Of a DNA stretch of 64,000 nucleotides, positions 24,001-60,000 are shown piece by piece. A program made the position numbers. Source of the stretch: an uncultured Gemmatimonadales bacterium (GTDB lineage Bacteria; Gemmatimonadota; Gemmatimonadetes; Longimicrobiales; RSA9); contig OY970192.1 in assembly GCA_963708135.1 (NCBI GenBank), positions 1,280,001 to 1,344,000 of the forward strand. Reading direction: 5' to 3'. Numbering within the stretch: position 1 is the first letter of the stretch; every line of letters begins with the position of its first letter.

Positions 24001-27000
24001 GCCTCGCCGCCGACCGGCAGACCATTCTCCGCGTGCTCTCCGAGGTCGGCCTCGCCGGCGAGGTCGATGAGCGCGTGCGCGGCTTCTCGTCCGGCATGCG
24101 ACGCCGGCTCTCGCTCGCTCGCGTGCTGCTCCGGCCCCCCCGACTCCTCCTGCTCGACGAGCCCTACGCCAGCTTCGATGTCGACGGCATCGACCTCGTC
24201 AACGCCTTCGTGCGGCGCGTGGTCGATGGCGGCGGCGCCGCCCTCGTCGCCACGCACGACCTGCGCCGTGCGCTCTCGGTCGTCGACCGCGTCGTCCGCA
24301 TCGAGGACGGCCTCCTCGTCGAGGGCGCCGCGGACACCGCCGAGGACGATGCCTCTCCGGCGGCCGACCCCTTCCTCCTGCAGAGCGAGGGCGTATGAGC
24401 GTGCGCGCCGAAATGGCCCGCGTGGGCGCCATCGCGTGGAAGGACCTCACCGCCGAGCGCCGGACCAAGGCCAACTTCAACGCCGTGCTCTTCTTTACGG
24501 CGCTGGTGCTGCTCCTCTTCGGGTTCGCGCTCGGCCCCGACCAGGCCGCGCTCCGCCAGGCCGCCGCCGGCGTGCTCTGGCTCACGATCCTGTTCGGCGG
24601 CGTGCTCTCCTTCAACCGCTCCTACGAGCTCGAGCTCGAGGGTGGCGCCCTCGAGGCGCTCCTGCTCTATCCGGGCGACCGCCGCTCGCTCTTCCTCGGC
24701 AAGCTGCTCGCGAACCTCGCCTTCCTCGCGCTCGTCGAGGTCGTCCTGGTCCCGCTGGCCTCCGTGCTCTACGATCTGCCCCTGCTCGCGCCCGGCGGCG
24801 GCCTCCTGCTCGTCATGGTGCTCGGTACCGTCGGCTTCGTCACCCTCGGGACCTTCTACGCCGCCATGGCCAGCCGCATCCGTGCCCGGGAGGTCATGCT
24901 CCCGCTGCTGCTCTTCCCGATGCTCGTGCCGCTCCTGCTCTGCTCCGTGGAGGCCACCAAGGCCCTCCTCATCGGTGACATCATGGGCGACAGCGGCGCC
25001 TGGATCCGACTGCTCACCGTGTTCGACCTGATCTTCCTGGTGGCGTCCTTCTTCGCCTTCGGCTATGTGATCGAGGAGTAGTTTCAATGGCTTCCACTAC
25101 CATCGACACCGCCTCGCTCCGGCCTCGCTGGCTGCGCATCTGGGGGTGGGCTTCGCTGGCCTTCTTCGTCTTCAGCCAGGTAACGGCGGTCGTCATCTCG
25201 CCGCCCGACCGTGACATGGGAGACCTCGAGAAGATCCTCTACGTCCACGTGCCCGCCGCCTGGATCAGCTTCGTCGCCTATGGCATCGTTTTCGTCTGCA
25301 GCGTCCTCTACCTCTGGAAGCGCGAGATCCGCTACGACCTCGCCGCCGCCGCCGCGGCCGAGGTCGGCGTCGTGCTCACCGGCCTCACGCTCGGCCTCGG
25401 CAGCATCTGGGGACGGCCCACCTGGGGCGTCTGGTGGACCTGGGATGCCCGCCTCACCAGCACCGCCGTGCTCTTCCTCATGTACGTCGGCTATCTCGCG
25501 CTGCGCGCCTTCACCGAGGACGAGCACCGCCGCGCCCGCTGGAGCGCCGCCGTCGGGCTCCTCGGCTTTCTGAACGTCTACATCGTCTACATGTCCGTCC
25601 GCTGGTGGCGTACCCTCCACCAGCTCCAGTCCGCCCCGTCCACGGTCGACCCGCGCTACGGCATCGGACTGCGCCTCAATGCGTTCGCGTTCACCTTCCT
25701 CCTCGTCTACTTCGTCGTCGCACGCTACCGGGTGGCCCGCCTCGAGCGGGAGATCGAAGCCCGGGCGGAGGAGGCGGCACTCGCTCCCGAAGGAGTCGGC
25801 GCCCATGCCTAACAACTGGGATTTCGTCGGGGCCGCCTACGGCCTCACCTGGATCGTCCTGGCCGGCTATACGCTCTACCTCGTTCGCCGCAGGCACGCA
25901 GTCGAAGAGCTGGCAAGAAGGGAGGAGGAGGCGCGATGAAACGCAAGAAGCTGATCCCGGCCCTCGTCGGCGCCGTGATCGTGCTCGGTGGGTTCGGCTA
26001 CCTCATCTACGGCGGGATCGACAACAACCTCGTCTATTTCCTCACGCCCACCGAGCTCCAGGCCAAGGGCGCGAAGGCGATCGGCGCTCCCGTACGCCTC
26101 GGCGGCCAGGTCGTACCGGGTAGCGTCGTCTGGAACGCCCAGGCCCTCGACCTCCAGTTCCGCATGACCGACGGCAAGGATGCCGTCAAGGTGCATTCCA
26201 CCAGCACCCCGCCGCAGATGTTCCGCGACGGAATGGGCGTCGTCGTCGAGGGCAAGCTCGCCGCCGACGGCGTCTTCGAGGCCAGCAACCTCATGGTCAA
26301 GCACTCCAACGAGTACCAACCTCCTCGCGCCGGCCACGAGCCCGAGGAGATGTACAAGACGCTCATCAAGGATCCGAAGAGCTGAGGAGGTCCCCCGGCG
26401 CGCCGCGCCGGAACGGAACCTGCCTGAGTGCCGAGCGCCCGGCCGGGAGTCCCCGGCCGGGCGCTTCTTCACGCCGATTCGAGGGGGGCCCGTGGACTGG
26501 GTGCACGTACATCTCATGGTGAACCACTTTCCGATCATCCTCGGCATGGTCGCGGCCGCGGGCGTCCTGGCCGCCCTCTTCACGCGCCGAGAGTTCTTCT
26601 GGATCTACGCCTGCGTGACTGCGATCCTCGCGGCCATCGCGGCGCCCGTGGCCTACATCACCGGCGATCAGGCCGGGGACGTCGCCCGCCACTTCTGGTA
26701 CGTCGACCGACCCGAGATCCACGACCACGAAGAGGCGGCCCTCTACACGCTCATCATCCTCATCGCCGCCGGCCTCGCCGCCATCTGGGCGCTCTACCGC
26801 CGCAACCCCCGCATCCGCGCCCTCTTCGCCGTCCTCATCATCGCAGGTGCCCTTTCCGGCGGCTTCACCGGCCTCGAGGGCGGCCATATCGTCCACACCA
26901 GTCCCAAGCTCGAGCCCAAGGTACGGCCGGACTCGACGGCGCCCGTCACACCAGCCGCCCCGCCGGCCGCCACGGCTCCCGGAAGGGGTTGATCCGGCCG

Positions 27001-57000: not shown

Positions 57001-60000
57001 CCAGGTATGAACTGGAAGCGCGCCGGTATCGGGATCGGAGCGGCCATTCCCGTGGTCGCGCTCCTCTCCTTCGGCCTCACCCGCGACCCGTCTCTCATTC
57101 CTTCCCCGCTGCCCGGGAAGGCGGCGCCCACGTTCGCCTTGAGGACCATGGACGCGGGCGACAGCATCCGGCTCGCCGACCTCCACGGCCAGGTCGTCGT
57201 CCTCAACTTCTGGGCCTCCTGGTGCCTGGCGTGCCGTGACGAGCACGCCACCCTCGCCGAGGCGGCCGCCCTCTACCAGCCCCTCGGGGTCCGCTTCTTC
57301 GGCGTCCTCTACGACGACTCGCCCGGCAATGGCAAGGCTTACATCCAGGAGATGGGCGGACAGGGCTACCCGACGCTGCTCGACCCCGAGACACGCACCG
57401 CCATCAGCTACGGCCTCTACGGCGTTCCCGAGACCTTCTTCATCGCCCGCGACGGCCGCGTCGCCTACAAGCAGATCGGGCCCGTCAGCCTCGACGGCAT
57501 GAGAAAGATCCTCGACCCGCTCCTTGCCGAGAAGGCGCCCCCCGCAGCCAGCGGCCGCGAGATCTCCCGCAGCCCCGCCCCCGACCGCCGCCTCGCCCGG
57601 CAGGGAGCGGGACGTCAGGAGTCACGATGAACCCCTTTGCGATCCTCGCCCTCGCCCTCGCCCTCGCGCCCGCGCCACCTCAGAGGCCCGACACCGGCAT
57701 GATCGGCGTCGTGCCCGCCGCCGCCGCCGCGCCCGGCTCGCGTCAGGACAGCATCCTCAATGCGCGCACCAAGGAGGTCGCCTCCCAGCTGCGCTGTCCC
57801 GTCTGTCAGGGACTCTCCCTCCAGGACTCGCCTTCCGACCTCGCCCGCCAGATGCGCGCGCTCGTCCATGACCAGCTCGCCGCCGGGAAGAGCCCCGACG
57901 AGGTCAAGCAGTACTTCGTCAGCAAGTACGGCGAGTGGATCCTCCTGCAGCCGCAGGCCCACGGCTTCAACCTCGTCGCCTACCTGCTGCCCGCCCTCGT
58001 CCTCCTCGCCGGCGCGGCCCTCGTCTGGACCGCCGCCCGCCGCTGGGTCCGCAGCCCCGAGGGACCCGAAGGGCCAGCCGAGGATCCGGGCCGCGATGCG
58101 ACAGCACCCCCCGAGGAATCGGGCGAAACAGCCTCGAGCCGCTGACGGATCGGGCGGCGTGGCTCTCCTCGCAAGGTACAGTCTTGCCCCTGAATGTCGC
58201 AAACTGCGACATTCAGGGGAGCGTGCGGCCGGGGCCGGCCGCCGGATGTGGTCCGTAGGCGATTGTGTGGTAAGGGGTTACACGAATGAGCACCGCCGCC
58301 GCGCAAGTGGTATGGAATGCGCGACGGGATCCGTTCGGGCTCTCCAGTTGCGCAACGATACCGAGGCGGTTGACCGATGACGGAGCAATCCAGCGAGCGT
58401 CCGAAGGCCCGCGTACTCGTGGTCGAGGACGAGGAGATCGTGCGGGACCTGCTGGTGAAGGTCCTGGACGACGAAGGGTACGTCGTGGAGTCGGTCGATA
58501 GCGGTGAGAAGGCGCTGAAGGCGCTGGACGCCGAGCTCTACGATGTCGTGCTGCTGGACCTTAACCTGCCGGGCATGTACGGGATGAACGTGCTGGCGGC
58601 GGCGCCGTCGCTTCAGACGGACGCGGCGTTCATCGTGATGACGGCGTTCGGGTCGGTGGACACGGCCGTGGAGGCGATGAAGCTGGGCGCGTTCGATTAC
58701 ATCAACAAGCCGTTCCGCCCGGAGGAGCTGCTGCTGGTTGTGGAGCGGGCGCTGCGGGAGACGGAGCTGCGGCGGGAGGTGGCGCAGCTGCGCCGGCGGG
58801 CGGGCGAGGGGGCGCGGGGGAGCATCGTCGGGAAGTCGCCGGCGCTCGAGCGGATGTTCGATCTGATCGAGCGGGTGGCGCCGACGCGGGCCACGGTGCT
58901 GATCACGGGGGAGACGGGGACGGGCAAGGAGCTGGCGGCGCGGGCGCTACACGAGCTTTCGGGGCGCGTGCGGAAGCCGTTCGTGGCGATCAACTGCTCG
59001 GCGCTGCCGGAGACGCTGCTGGAGACGGAGCTGTTCGGGCACATGCGGGGCAGCTTCACGGGGGCGATCCAGAACAAGCGCGGCCTGTTCGAGGAGGCGA
59101 ACGGCGGCACGCTGTTCCTGGACGAGATCTCGACGGTCTCGCAGTCGATCCAGGTGAAGCTCCTGCGCGTGCTGCAGGACCGGAAGATCCAGCGGATCGG
59201 CGGGACCCAACAGCTTCCCGTGGACTTCCGGCTGGTGGCCGCCACGAACGTCGAGCTGGCGGAGCGGGTGGAGAACGGGGAGTTCCGAGAGGACCTGTTC
59301 TACCGGCTGAACGTGTTCCCGATTCGAGTTCCGGCGCTACGTGAGCGGAAGAGCGACATCCCCTTGCTGGCCAACTACTTCCGGACGAAGTTCGCGCAGG
59401 AGAACGGGGTCGAGGCGCCGGAGATCTCGCCCGAGACCATGCGGCGCCTGATCGAGTACGAGTGGCCGGGCAACGTGCGTGAGCTCGAGAACTTCATCGA
59501 GCGGGCGGTGATCATGCACGCCGGCGCTCGCTCGATCCCCTTCGACGCGCCGGCCGGGCAGAAGGAGAAGACGGAGCGCGACATGATCGCGCGGGCCCGC
59601 CAGGAGCGCTGGAACCTCGAGCAGCTGGAGCGCGAGTACATCCTCAATGTGCTGGACCAGACGCGGGGCCACAAGGGCAACGCCGCCGAGGTCCTGGGCA
59701 TCGACCGCCGGACGCTCTACCGGAAGCTGAAGAAATATCAGGACGATGGGCTGCTGCAGGAGCTCGAGCTCGCCGGCGTCGATTAGGATGCGGAGGCGCG
59801 CGATCGTCTGACTACGCGCGATCGACCGGCCTGGGCGTCGCCGGCCGTGCCGGCAGCCGCAGCGTGAACGTCGATCCGACGCCCGGCGTGGTGTCCACGG
59901 TCACATCCCCGCCCATGAGGCGGGCGAGCTGTCGGGAGAGCGGCAGGCCCAGGCCCGTGCCGCGGCCCTTCGCCGCGACCGACACCTGCTCGTACGGCCG

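Follow-up and report, generated by a model that had tools for sequence, protein, structure and literature searches.

A window of 64,000 nt from a soil Gemmatimonadota chromosome (position 1 is OY970192.1 position 1,280,001; all coordinates are positions in this window) carries a multihaem gene cluster that is likely to encode two paralogous porin-cytochrome conduits, ancient and confined to Gemmatimonadota, with their own points of electron entry, an 8-haem terminal reductase (c8) and an outward flow of electrons. We infer that the conduit is probably an independently evolved porin-cytochrome system that exports electrons. If so, the respiratory quinone pool would be wired to the cell exterior and a common soil phylum would become a candidate mineral breather. 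A conduit built on an unnamed Gemmatimonadota barrel had been proposed in a first-pass annotation, and the proposal is supported by the strict pairing of barrel and 16-haem cytochrome (c16) genes, by a complex prediction set against three controls and by adjacent quinol-linked modules. Gene models were rebuilt from GC3-filtered open reading frames with inspection of start codons, which reproduced the earlier ones. The features are as follows.

23634..26385, + strand: ccmA, ccmB, ccmC, ccmD and ccmE (Pfam ABC_tran, CcmB, Cytochrom_C_asm, CcmD, CcmE), first half of a system I cytochrome c maturation operon
26492..26992, + strand: small 4-helix membrane protein; four hydrophobic segments, weak Pfam DUF2231 match (E 2.4e-4, below cut-off)
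27603..29045, + strand: c8a (g01105), lipoprotein of an OcwA/OmhA-like clade; 8 CxxCH and one invariant CxxxxCH, lipobox-like VAGC at residue 24
29081..29935, + strand: c9L (g01106), 9-haem lipoprotein, probable periplasmic feeder; nine CxxCH
29932..31443, + strand: barrel A (g01107), 503 aa, haem-free outer-membrane beta-barrel; 0 CxxCH
31443..32909, + strand: c16a (g01108), 16-haem cytochrome with signal peptide, proposed wire through barrel A; 16 CxxCH
32902..34266, + strand: c9 (g01109), 9-haem cytochrome with C-terminal membrane helix; nine CxxCH, hydrophobic segment 412-430
34269-34742, + strand: Rieske iron-sulphur protein (Pfam Rieske 3e-12)
34744-35826, + strand: cytochrome b of b6/ExtP type (Pfam Cytochrome_B 1.1e-48; NCBIfam cytochrome b6 4e-67 and ExtP 1.5e-61, both below cut-offs)
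36322..37800, + strand: c8b (g01112), paralogue of c8a; 8 CxxCH, directly 5' of c17 in relatives
38244..40615, + strand: IS21-family insertion sequence between convergent genes; istA 38437-39753, istB 39750-40520 (NCBIfam transpos_IS21 8.6e-84, IstB 4e-78)
40679..44222, - strand: third inner-membrane module, made up of the next three genes
40679-42034, - strand: c12 lipoprotein (g01115); 12 CxxCH
42016-42915, - strand: b561/FdnI-like cytochrome b (g01116; Pfam Ni_hydr_CYTB 2.3e-6, NCBIfam formate dehydrogenase gamma 3.8e-8, both below cut-off)
42912-44222, - strand: c11 (g01117) with C-terminal anchor; 11 CxxCH, hydrophobic segments
44219-45589, - strand: sigma-54-dependent response regulator (Pfam Sigma54_activat 4.6e-64, Response_reg)
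45535-47145, - strand: histidine kinase (Pfam HATPase_c, HisKA)
47191-48372, - strand: 10-helix membrane protein, 393 aa; ten hydrophobic segments, no Pfam or NCBIfam match
48693-49202, - strand: monohaem cytochrome c lipoprotein (Cytochrome_CBB3 1.4e-10)
49199-49624, - strand: TPR lipoprotein (Pfam TPR matches)
50087..51925, + strand: c17 (g01123), 17-haem cytochrome with N-terminal membrane helix and c9L-like C-terminal module; 17 CxxCH, hydrophobic segment 22-40
51922..53385, + strand: barrel B (g01124), 487 aa, haem-free, about 24 strands; 0 CxxCH
53382..54869, + strand: c16b (g01125), 16-haem cytochrome, proposed wire through barrel B; 16 CxxCH
55031..58145, + strand: ccmF, ccmG (DsbE-like) and ccmH (Pfam CcmF_C 3.7e-67, AhpC-TSA/Redoxin, CcmH 6e-32), second half of the maturation operon

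A recount of the nine multihaem cytochromes gave the same 106 CxxCH motifs as had been reported. In a whole-genome count the cluster held nine of the 14 open reading frames with at least four CxxCH, 106 of 136 motifs and every cytochrome of at least nine haems, a concentration far above chance. The region had been called a 33-kb island. The clustering of multihaem genes stands, but not horizontal acquisition: with an even G+C across the region (0.67-0.74) and modules spread widely through the phylum, the locus is better described as a gene cluster. The split maturation genes on its flanks were found as described, with ccmC-E-F-G-H contiguous in relatives and divided in the present genome, as was the Rieske and cytochrome b pair at 34269-35826. 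The paralogous relationships were also recovered: the barrels are 46% identical, the two c16 proteins 43% over 475 aa and the two c8 proteins 54% over 489 aa.

Synteny was sampled in 80 related loci from the genomes of other species; the related genome records listed with titles were all MAGs. A c16 gene lay directly 3' of the barrel gene in 74 of 74 evaluable loci, and a multihaem gene lay directly 5' of it in 69 of 71 (c9L in 34, c17 in 24 and c8 in 11). The first-pass module of a barrel and its flanking cytochromes thus survives, but not its limit of three genes, since the conserved units are larger. In the recurring type A operon the order is c8, c9L, barrel, c16, c9, Rieske and cytochrome b, and in type B it is ccm, c8, membrane-anchored c17, barrel and c16; both types are found in this cluster. 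The genes for c9, Rieske protein and cytochrome b followed downstream in 23 of the 62 loci with at least 5 kb of downstream sequence, the order c8b-c17-barrel-c16 was seen in 19 loci, and 55 of the 60 loci that could be judged had c8 within their operon. A quick tree of the barrels placed barrel A in a clade of 26 rows that contained all 23 Rieske-linked barrels (SH-aLRT 98).

The two barrels had been said to lack a named family, and this was borne out in searches of Pfam and NCBIfam (no match for either at E<=0.01) and of PDB sequences (no match at E<=10). When 33 members of the family were compared with Pfam and NCBIfam at E<=10, no recurring or significant family appeared and MtrB_PioB was absent; the scattered matches, six to Pfam and two to NCBIfam, occurred in one or two members each (best E 0.011 and 0.0045). 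A new AlphaFold2 model of barrel B from the 33-sequence alignment (mean pLDDT 83.3, pTM 0.77) has 24 long antiparallel strands in the stretch from residue 22 to residue 474, in agreement with the fold proposed earlier, and contains neither a plug domain nor a TonB box domain. The 533 homologues reported before were obtained again (E<=0.001). Among the 120 of these that were listed, all seven records naming an organism are Gemmatimonadota; the family was present in 182 of 401 sampled genomes of this phylum and no matches were seen beyond it. These results support an unnamed, Gemmatimonadota-restricted barrel family of about 24 strands.

In 34 c16 sequences all 16 CxxCH motifs and 16 further histidines are invariant, and this set, at about 30 residues per haem, suggests a wire-like protein. 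The complex of barrel (residues 21-487) and c16 (residues 23-495) was predicted from an alignment of each, with haems absent. The ipSAE values in three runs were 0.79, 0.48 and 0.68 (median 0.68), compared with 0.00 for the best of three controls; the pass mark of the tool admits 116 of 157 solved complexes and 2 of 215 mismatched pairs, rates that apply approximately here because our own alignments were used. The runs shared at least 42% of contacts, with a partner pLDDT of at least 68. Lumen-facing barrel residues between 26 and 468, on almost every strand, touch c16 residues 342-486, and the lowest-error contacts join the most conserved segment of the barrel (invariant L301, W302, T303, I304, W305, G306 and F308) to the most conserved non-haem segment of c16 (G433, A436, R437 ... 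H447). The C-terminal third of c16 is thus predicted to lie inside the barrel, and may be inserted there in vivo. The prediction could partly mirror a learned MtrAB-like geometry; no sequence similarity was detectable between the barrel and MtrB or between c16 and MtrA.

The cytochrome encoded upstream of the barrel is probably a periplasmic feeder, judging from its homologies. The lipoprotein c9L is 37% identical to residues 419-598 of c17, its C-terminal part (E 2e-29), and c17 appears to be tethered to the inner membrane by its N-terminal helix; the start of c17 is weakly NrfH/NapC-like (NCBIfam NrfH at E 2.1e-6, scoring 27.8 bits where the cut-off is 134). An MtrC-like outer role for c9L and c17 is less likely for this reason. 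Each conduit module adjoins its own quinol-linked inner-membrane module, and c9 is probably the subunit that stands in for cytochrome c1 in the Rieske/cytochrome b complex. The trio of c11, cytochrome b and c12 also lies near barrels in three related loci (L016, L070 and L078).

A better candidate for the outer cytochrome is c8. Its nearest solved relatives are not MtrA: the family profile matched OmhA (6QVM, E 1.3e-16) and OcwA (6I5B, E 1.6e-13), surface terminal reductases of Gram-positive metal reducers. A fold model of c8, which has eight or possibly nine haems, was of low confidence (pLDDT 54.6). Lipoproteins reside by default on the periplasmic face, so that exposure of c8 at the surface is conjectural. 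The PDB identities of these relatives follow Table 1 of PMC9250108, and the title of PMC6703420 calls OcwA a cell-surface terminal reductase.

Taken together, a haem-free barrel of about 24 strands would sheathe the C-terminal third of a bis-His c16, about seven haems, with the remaining nine extending into the periplasm. Electrons would enter type A through the Rieske/cytochrome b complex with its C-terminally anchored 9-haem subunit, relayed by c9L, and type B through the N-terminally tethered c17, which ends in a module homologous to c9L. The c8 lipoprotein, first in each operon, would probably serve as terminal reductase at the outer end of the chain. Most likely menaquinol would be the donor, and Fe(III), Mn(IV) or humics outside the cell, or another cell, the acceptor, in an auxiliary respiration of an otherwise aerobic heterotroph. 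The genome, with three full haem-copper oxidases, two secretins and no RuBisCO large subunit found, fits this picture.

The direction is less certain, since electrons can also pass backwards through Rieske/cytochrome b complexes and NapC-type proteins. The same conduit might instead work inwards, with extracellular Fe(II) or Mn(II), reduced humics, a cathode or a partner cell as donor and cytochrome c and the oxidases as acceptors, a reading that we regard as unlikely though worth keeping in view. The type B layout of an inner-membrane cytochrome, a barrel and one trans-membrane cytochrome with no obligatory MtrC-like partner resembles that of MtoAB/PioAB of iron oxidisers, the genome encodes three full haem-copper oxidases that could take up such electrons, and a monohaem cytochrome c gene lies within the cluster. 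Where porin-cytochrome clusters include b-type proteins of the inner membrane, He et al. 2017 (PMC5566968) read them as oxidation pathways. Against inward flow, the two inner-membrane modules are of families in which quinol is normally oxidised, and the nearest solved relatives of c8 are terminal reductases. No RuBisCO large subunit was found in the single-contig genome (97.65% complete), which makes CBB-based lithoautotrophy unlikely.

Because the OcwA/OmhA clade is part of the NrfA/HAO/OTR enzyme group, c8 could also be a periplasmic enzyme acting on a soluble N, S, Se or Te compound, with the cytochromes as its electron chain and the barrel as a channel for substrate or product. There are indeed weak matches of the c8 profile to octahaem nitrite reductases, cytochrome c554 and HAO (E 8e-4 to 0.05). 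Against the NCBIfam model named after ExtP, a protein of the Geobacter selenite/tellurite operon, the cytochrome b reached 207.8 bits (cut-off 290), and in fold the barrel is closest to large outer-membrane barrels of a generic kind, substrate channels and TonB-dependent transporters among them. Such a system is nonetheless improbable: invariable pairing with a 16-haem gene would be unexpected in a substrate channel, as would a predicted contact of its most conserved loop and its entire lumen with a cytochrome, the barrel model lacks plug and TonB box domains, and 42 haems per operon far exceed the wiring needs of a periplasmic enzyme. It is hardly credible that the barrel, rather than sheathing a static wire, is an usher-like pore by which c8, a polymerising c16 or another of the cytochromes is exported or anchored. 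The 24-stranded ushers FimD and PapC do rank high among its matches in fold (Foldseek E 2e-10 to 1e-7, TMq up to 0.47; VIA Z 17.7), but these matches are generic, with TonB-dependent and SusC barrels scoring equally well or better; the plug, N-terminal and C-terminal usher domains are absent from the barrel, and the operons have no chaperone gene.

A porin-cytochrome cluster of this general kind has a precedent. The first-pass annotation had cautioned that MAG surveys might list Gemmatimonadota porin-cytochrome clusters, rightly so: a 2026 survey (PMC13264449) places a Gemmatimonadales MAG among the porin-cytochrome clusters carrying petB/petC.

Several other genes of the cluster recur beside barrels. 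Histidine kinase and response regulator pairs adjoin the barrel operons of several relatives, the gene for the 393-aa membrane protein lies 5' of c8 in 10 of 20 type A loci, and the TPR gene lies 3' of c16 in many type B loci. The IS21 element is present in three genome copies of about 99.9-100% identity, and has imperfect terminal inverted repeats with CCGT repeated at both flanks.

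The window has a G+C content of approximately 71%, which makes lists of open reading frames noisy, and gene models were therefore rebuilt from codon-position G+C together with inspection of start sites. The genes of the cluster, in order, are as follows.

Genes of the cytochrome cluster, with strand and, where stated, window coordinates
23634-26385, plus strand: ccmABCDE
plus strand, between ccmABCDE and g01105: small membrane protein
plus strand: g01105, lipoprotein with 8 CxxCH motifs (c8a)
plus strand: g01106, lipoprotein with 9 CxxCH motifs (c9L)
plus strand: g01107, haem-free protein of 503 amino acids (barrel A)
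plus strand: g01108, protein with 16 CxxCH motifs (c16a)
plus strand: g01109, protein with 9 CxxCH motifs (c9)
plus strand, between g01109 and g01112: Rieske protein, then b6-type cytochrome b
plus strand: g01112, lipoprotein with 8 CxxCH motifs (c8b), followed by the IS21 element
38244-40615: IS21-family element of 2,372 bp with istA and istB, between the convergent g01112 and g01115
minus strand: g01115, lipoprotein with 12 CxxCH motifs (c12)
minus strand: g01116, membrane cytochrome b, b561/FdnI-like
minus strand: g01117, protein with 11 CxxCH motifs (c11)
minus strand, same block: sigma-54 response regulator and histidine kinase
minus strand, end of the block: 10-helix membrane protein, monohaem cytochrome c and TPR lipoprotein
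plus strand: g01123, protein with 17 CxxCH motifs and a membrane helix at its N-terminus (c17)
plus strand: g01124, haem-free protein of 487 amino acids (barrel B)
plus strand: g01125, protein with 16 CxxCH motifs (c16b), with ccmFGH next

A recount of the CxxCH motifs, 106 in sum, agreed gene for gene with the figures of the first-pass annotation. Genome-wide, 14 open reading frames have at least four CxxCH motifs, for a combined 136; the cluster accounts for nine of these 14 and for 106 of the 136 motifs, and includes all proteins with at least nine haems. The term island, used in the first-pass annotation, holds in the sense of a gene cluster that contains all of the cytochrome modules. It does not hold in the sense of horizontal acquisition, which was rejected given the uniform G+C and the wide occurrence of the operons across Gemmatimonadota. 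The original observation of two modules, each with a porin of an unnamed 24-strand family, was confirmed, and its interpretation as porin-cytochrome conduits is supported with refinements.

The two haem-free proteins are 46% identical, as first reported, and the genome, a single contig of 5.45 Mb, encodes no third copy. Neither matched a Pfam or NCBIfam family at E ≤ 0.01, so that the family is still without a name. When 33 members were compared with Pfam and NCBIfam at E ≤ 10, no family was recurring or significant; the matches were scattered, each to one or two members, and the MtrB_PioB profile was absent among them. A scan of the complete genome sequence with this profile (PF11854) was likewise negative at E ≤ 0.01, and a profile of the barrel family retrieved no chain from the PDB sequences at E ≤ 10, 6R2Q_B included. 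Structure prediction with AlphaFold2 on 33 sequences (pLDDT 83.3, pTM 0.77) again gave a barrel of about 24 strands, with 24 long antiparallel strands and without a plug or TonB box domain in the model. The best Foldseek matches of this model were the ushers FimD and PapC and porins, with TMq no higher than 0.47. VIA-align gave Z scores of 16-18.8 for barrels of the SusC-like, TonB-dependent, OccD and FimD kinds, and ranked MtrB (6r2q_B) 21st, with a Z of 15.5 and an rmsd of 5.0 across 358 residues. Because these searches return generic large outer-membrane barrels, with MtrB only at rank 21, the modelled fold class suits a conduit but implies no special closeness to MtrB. No Pfam family is shared by the 30 ESM Atlas clusters nearest to the barrel, of which the first three come from Gemmatimonadota. 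Generic porins and PEP-CTERM-associated barrels, the closest clusters with a name (score 0.92), are probably chance matches.

The family appears to be restricted to one phylum. A word-indexed search found 533 proteins at E ≤ 0.001, and all seven of the 120 listed matches that name an organism are Gemmatimonadota. An exhaustive profile search, which took in 1.84 billion cluster representatives, found 528 at E ≤ 0.001, 330 at E ≤ 1e-10 and 186 at E ≤ 1e-30; ten distant full-length sequences were looked up, and those in their clusters that carry a name belong to Gemmatimonadales or Gemmatimonadota, apart from one labelled only as bacterium. A relative of the barrel is encoded in 404 stretches from GTDB species genomes, and the titles of the best 80 of these 404 give a Gemmatimonadota lineage for 78 and uncultured bacterium for two. 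When Gemmatimonadota was sampled evenly, the barrel was present in 182 genomes out of 401 and in 81 of the 147 genera. Its distribution is patchy among lineages: in the order to which the window belongs, two genera that are well sampled, with many single-contig assemblies, lack it (0/11 and 0/24 genomes), and another family in the sample has it in 117 of 166 genomes.

Gene order was compared in 80 relative loci (the best 80 of the 404 stretches), in which the proteins of the window were placed by tblastn. The gene for the 16-haem cytochrome c16 lies immediately 3' of the barrel gene in all 74 loci with enough sequence, and a multihaem gene lies immediately 5' in 69 of 71 loci, so that the barrel gene stands beside multihaem genes across genomes. 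The 5' neighbors are g01106-like in 34 loci, g01123-like in 24 and g01105/g01112-like in 11. The three-gene module of the first-pass annotation is too narrow, as the conserved operons are larger than this; 55 of 60 loci have a g01105-type 8-haem gene within the operon. Two layouts predominate. Type A, complete in 22 loci, reads (10-helix protein)-c8-c9L-barrel-c16-c9-Rieske-cytochrome b; of the 62 loci with 5 kb of downstream sequence, 23 have the Rieske and cytochrome b genes after the barrel. Type B reads ccmC-E-F-G-H-c8-c17-barrel-c16-(TPR), with ccm genes upstream in 14 of 17 such loci. A tree of 82 barrels, from a quick IQ-TREE maximum-likelihood search with SH-aLRT support only, placed all 23 Rieske-linked barrels, g01107 among them, in one clade of 26 rows (SH-aLRT 98), and g01124 in the other half of the tree with c17- and c8-linked barrels. 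On this evidence, because Rieske-linked barrels separate from c17- and c8-linked ones, the two modules are old paralogues, each traveling with its own inner-membrane partner, and not the products of a recent duplication.

Both operon types occur once in the window, the type B operon in broken form. The IS21 element and the block of minus-strand genes lie between the 8-haem gene g01112 and g01123, which are 12.3 kb apart, and ccmABCDE and ccmFGH lie 28.6 kb apart (26385-55031) with the cytochrome modules between them. In relatives, ccmC-E-F-G-H is contiguous and upstream of the type B operon, as c8 is contiguous with c17, and the separation seen here points to a lineage-specific rearrangement. 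The IS21 element as its cause was rejected, since the short direct repeat CCGT on both of its flanks fits a simple insertion; another copy has an 8-bp flanking repeat. Three copies with approximately 99.9-100% identity occur in the genome and, because they are nearly identical, the element is probably active. Outside the window, a 7-CxxCH open reading frame (contig positions approximately 1,079,839-1,080,435) adjoins the IS21 copy at 1,077,472-1,079,772. Just upstream of the element in the window is an intergenic run of eight perfect tandem units of the hexamer GGGTGA (38022-38069).

The cytochrome c16 has about 30 residues per haem. All 16 CxxCH motifs and 16 further histidines are invariant among 34 sequences, which fits bis-histidine ligation, and the protein is judged to be wire-like from these features. 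Its only solved relatives by sequence are 16-haem HmcA-type cytochromes (residues 40-160, E 2e-8); MtrA was absent from the matches of the c16 profile to the PDB at E ≤ 1, and neither g01108 nor g01125 matched the DmsE/MtrA family TIGR03508 at E ≤ 0.01. A complex of barrel residues 21-487 and c16 residues 23-495 was predicted, each supplied as an alignment and with no haems modeled. The ipSAE values were 0.79, 0.48 and 0.68 (median 0.68), as against 0.00 for the best of three controls, with contact agreement between runs of at least 42% and partner pLDDT of at least 68. Of 157 solved complexes, 116 reach the pass mark of the tool, as do two of 215 mismatched pairs, rates that are a rough guide here as our own alignments were used. 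In the predicted interface, barrel residues on nearly all strands touch c16 residues 342-486, the stretch with the last seven haem motifs, and the contacts line the lumen. The two proteins are not docked side by side in this prediction. The contacts with the lowest error join the invariant barrel segment L301-W-T-I-W-G-A-F308, a low-confidence loop in the monomer model, to the G433-H447 region of c16, its most conserved non-haem segment. Since the prediction was made without haems and MtrAB is an already solved precedent, it supports, and does not prove, insertion of c16 in the barrel. Two cysteines of g01124, Cys66 and Cys73 (window approximately 52117-52140), are invariant in the 33 barrel sequences; they lie in an RCxxGDxYCRF-like motif that forms a short hairpin loop in the model, and may form a disulphide. 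The nearby residues 63-65 and 74-76 are among the predicted contacts with c16.

The 8-haem lipoprotein c8 (g01105 and g01112) differs from the wire-like cytochromes, with about 60 residues per haem. An invariant CxxxxCH beside its eight CxxCH motifs would make nine haem sites. A profile of the c8 family matched OmhA (6QVM, E 1.3e-16) and OcwA (6I5B, E 1.6e-13) in the PDB, and more weakly c554 (8.4e-4), HAO (2.4e-3), ONR (3.4e-3) and MtrA (6r2q_A, 0.01); by sequence, c8 is thus closer to OcwA and OmhA than to other members of the NrfA/HAO/OTR group. The AlphaFold2 model of c8 from 34 sequences (pLDDT 54.6, pTM 0.47) was too poor for a fold search. Table 1 of PMC9250108 lists 6QVM as the 11-haem OmhA of Carboxydothermus ferrireducens and 6I5B as the 9-haem OcwA of Thermincola potens, both surface proteins of Gram-positive Clostridia, and the title of PMC6703420 terms OcwA a cell-surface terminal reductase. 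The likeness lies in the profile matches and in the nine potential haem sites, which equal the number in OcwA as tabulated in PMC9250108; the difference is that c8 is a diderm lipoprotein encoded with a barrel. OcwA and OmhA themselves have five-coordinate haems with distal His pairs. Because OmhA and OcwA are its nearest solved relatives, c8 is the candidate outer terminus of the conduit. An 8-CxxCH open reading frame outside the window (contig positions approximately 3,046,812-3,047,597) is possibly a third c8 paralogue.

The cytochromes encoded 5' of the barrels, c9L and c17, look like periplasmic feeders. The c9L protein g01106 is 37% identical to the C-terminal 200 residues of g01123 (E 2e-29) and, because this homologous module is fused to an inner-membrane anchor in g01123, c9L is unlikely to be extracellular. 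In g01123 the N-terminal helix (residues 22-40) would act as a tether, and is followed by CxxCH motifs at 54, 77, 114 and 151, a spacing that fits the NapC/NirT/NrfH layout. Its start has a weak match to an NrfH/NapC-like tetrahaem region (NrfH E 2.1e-6, 27.8 bits against a cut-off of 134), and its match to the Pfam family Cytochrom_NNT was also weak (E 0.005). For type A, the proposed link to quinone would be the Rieske/cytochrome b pair, both proteins scoring above Pfam cut-offs, and the signal peptide and C-terminal helix (412-430) of g01109 give it the predicted topology of a cytochrome c1 substitute. By annotation, then, an inner-membrane redox protein would connect the system to the quinone pool. 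In the minus-strand block, c11, the b561-like membrane protein and c12 form a trio that is a candidate third quinol module; its cytochrome b, g01116, is FdnI/b561-like with scores below cut-off, and the trio recurs near barrels in three other loci.

If the conduit is real, outward electron flow, as an auxiliary respiration of an aerobic heterotroph, is modestly favored, because the families of both inner-membrane modules usually oxidize quinol and the relatives of c8 are reductases. The main alternative is inward flow. The type B operon shares the logic of the MtoAB/PioAB systems of iron oxidizers with their CymA/MtoC-type cytochromes, namely an anchored inner-membrane multihaem cytochrome, a barrel and one barrel-spanning cytochrome. 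It differs from them in its sequence families, in the c8 lipoprotein encoded with the barrel in those 55 of 60 loci, and in a host without RuBisCO, the large subunit of which was not found in the genome (completeness 97.65%). The genome encodes three full haem-copper oxidases and two secretins.

By analogy, the system would work like the MtrCAB, MtoAB or Geobacter complexes. It shares with MtrCAB of Shewanella oneidensis (6R2Q) a barrel predicted to sheathe a multihaem cytochrome, adjacent genes, a lipoprotein cytochrome as candidate outer partner and a feed from a quinol-linked inner-membrane cytochrome. It differs in barrels that lack a MtrB_PioB match, in a c16 that lacks a DmsE/MtrA match and in 16 haems in c16 as against 10 in MtrA. 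MtrB has 26 strands, and the g01107/g01124 family has about 24. The system therefore falls outside the Mtr family in sequence, haem number and strand number. Geobacter porin-cytochrome clusters comprise OmaB-OmbB-OmcB and ExtABCD, ExtEFG and ExtHIJKL with ExtMNOPQS. These resemble the present system in their Pfam-less porin-like barrels flanked by periplasmic and lipoprotein multihaem cytochromes, and in the b6-type cytochrome b beside the conduit, which matched the NCBIfam family ExtP at 1.5e-61, below its cut-off. They are set apart, by description, in haem numbers and gene order, and the present barrel has no NCBIfam match.

PCC3 and PCC4 (He et al. 2017, PMC5566968) are likewise candidates defined by gene order with b-type inner-membrane partners. 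In the description given there, PCC4 consists of a porin, three cytochromes in the periplasm (with 4, 5 and 10 haems) and a protein of five helices that carries two HX13H motifs. Compared by that description, the present operons lie outside the definition, with haem numbers of 8, 9, 16 and 9 or of 8, 17 and 16, and their partner in the inner membrane is either a genuine pair of Rieske protein and cytochrome b or a cytochrome c with a membrane tether. The first-pass annotation had cautioned that MAG surveys might already list Gemmatimonadota conduits, and the caution was apt: PMC13264449 (2026) reports several porin-cytochrome clusters with petB and petC, MAG SAW209 among them, and its supplementary table S3 assigns SAW209 to the Gemmatimonadales, family GWC2-71-9. 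Its supplementary tables give MAG taxonomy and no per-MAG cluster description. A Gemmatimonadota cluster of this general kind is therefore already in print. In the parts of PMC5566968 and PMC13264449 consulted, the barrel family, its spread in the phylum, the pairing with c16 and an OcwA/OmhA-like c8 are not defined. A search of open full text found no literature that defines the barrel family, how widely it occurs in the phylum, its invariant pairing with c16 or the OcwA/OmhA-like c8. For a Gemmatimonadota conduit it gave only general mentions of multihaem proteins or Cyc2 in Gemmatimonadota MAGs, counts of ImcH/CbcL homologues, and PMC13264449. As far as these sources describe them, PCC3 and PCC4 are nearest in spirit, with a different composition.

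Taken jointly, these results tentatively suggest, as a possibility that we hold at rather less than even confidence, a conduit that evolved within Gemmatimonadota (a 24-strand barrel and a 16-haem wire without sequence kinship to Mtr), with an OcwA/OmhA-type cap, entry either at a Rieske/cytochrome b complex or at a 17-haem quinol dehydrogenase with a membrane tether, and an overlooked guild as its carriers. Porin-cytochrome conduits are the known diderm route for electron exchange with minerals, electrodes and partner cells, and those characterized are mainly from Pseudomonadota and Desulfuromonadota. Here the conduit would be built from unrelated parts, around a barrel unseen by Pfam and NCBIfam, and it would probably also escape marker-based surveys that use known EET gene models. 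Gemmatimonadota are common in soils and sediments and, because nearly half of the sampled genomes carry the barrel, the phylum would, if this reading is true, represent a large and overlooked group of bacteria in oxic-anoxic soils that respire minerals or humics or are electrode-active. The direct connection of a Q-cycle complex to an extracellular acceptor would likewise be new in bioenergetics. Should the system work as proposed, it would alter the taxa to which the cycling of iron, manganese and humics in soils is ascribed, provide a compact two-protein module (barrel and c16) for bioelectrochemical engineering, and tie OcwA/OmhA-type reductases, so far known from Gram-positive cell surfaces, to a diderm system.

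Sequencing runs matching 50087-54869 included no RNA run; the sole match was one soil-metagenome DNA run, possibly that of the source sample. Two sigma-54-like matches lie 5' of the two modules, at 27252 and 49958 on the plus strand. Sigma-54 promoters were nevertheless rejected, as TGGCAC-N5-TTGCW with two mismatches matches the window 21 times against 18.5 expected, and TGGC-N8-TTGC occurs 5' of c8-first operons in two of 56 relatives against approximately 1% of control windows. Directly after ccmH (58377-61404) are a sigma-54-dependent response regulator on the plus strand and a PAS-GAF histidine kinase on the minus strand, and with this second pair the cluster is bracketed by two NtrC-type regulatory pairs. 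The 10-helix membrane protein of the minus-strand block (47191-48372, minus strand; 393 amino acids, ten hydrophobic segments) had no Pfam or NCBIfam match, and the ESM Atlas gave a weak Rce1-like/CAAX protease lead (PF02517, present in 13% of its nearest cluster). Because it precedes c8 in 10 of 20 type A operons of relatives, this protein may be part of the conduit system. Directly upstream of ccmA, at 20561-23435, are pntAA, pntAB and pntB, which encode a proton-translocating NAD(P) transhydrogenase.
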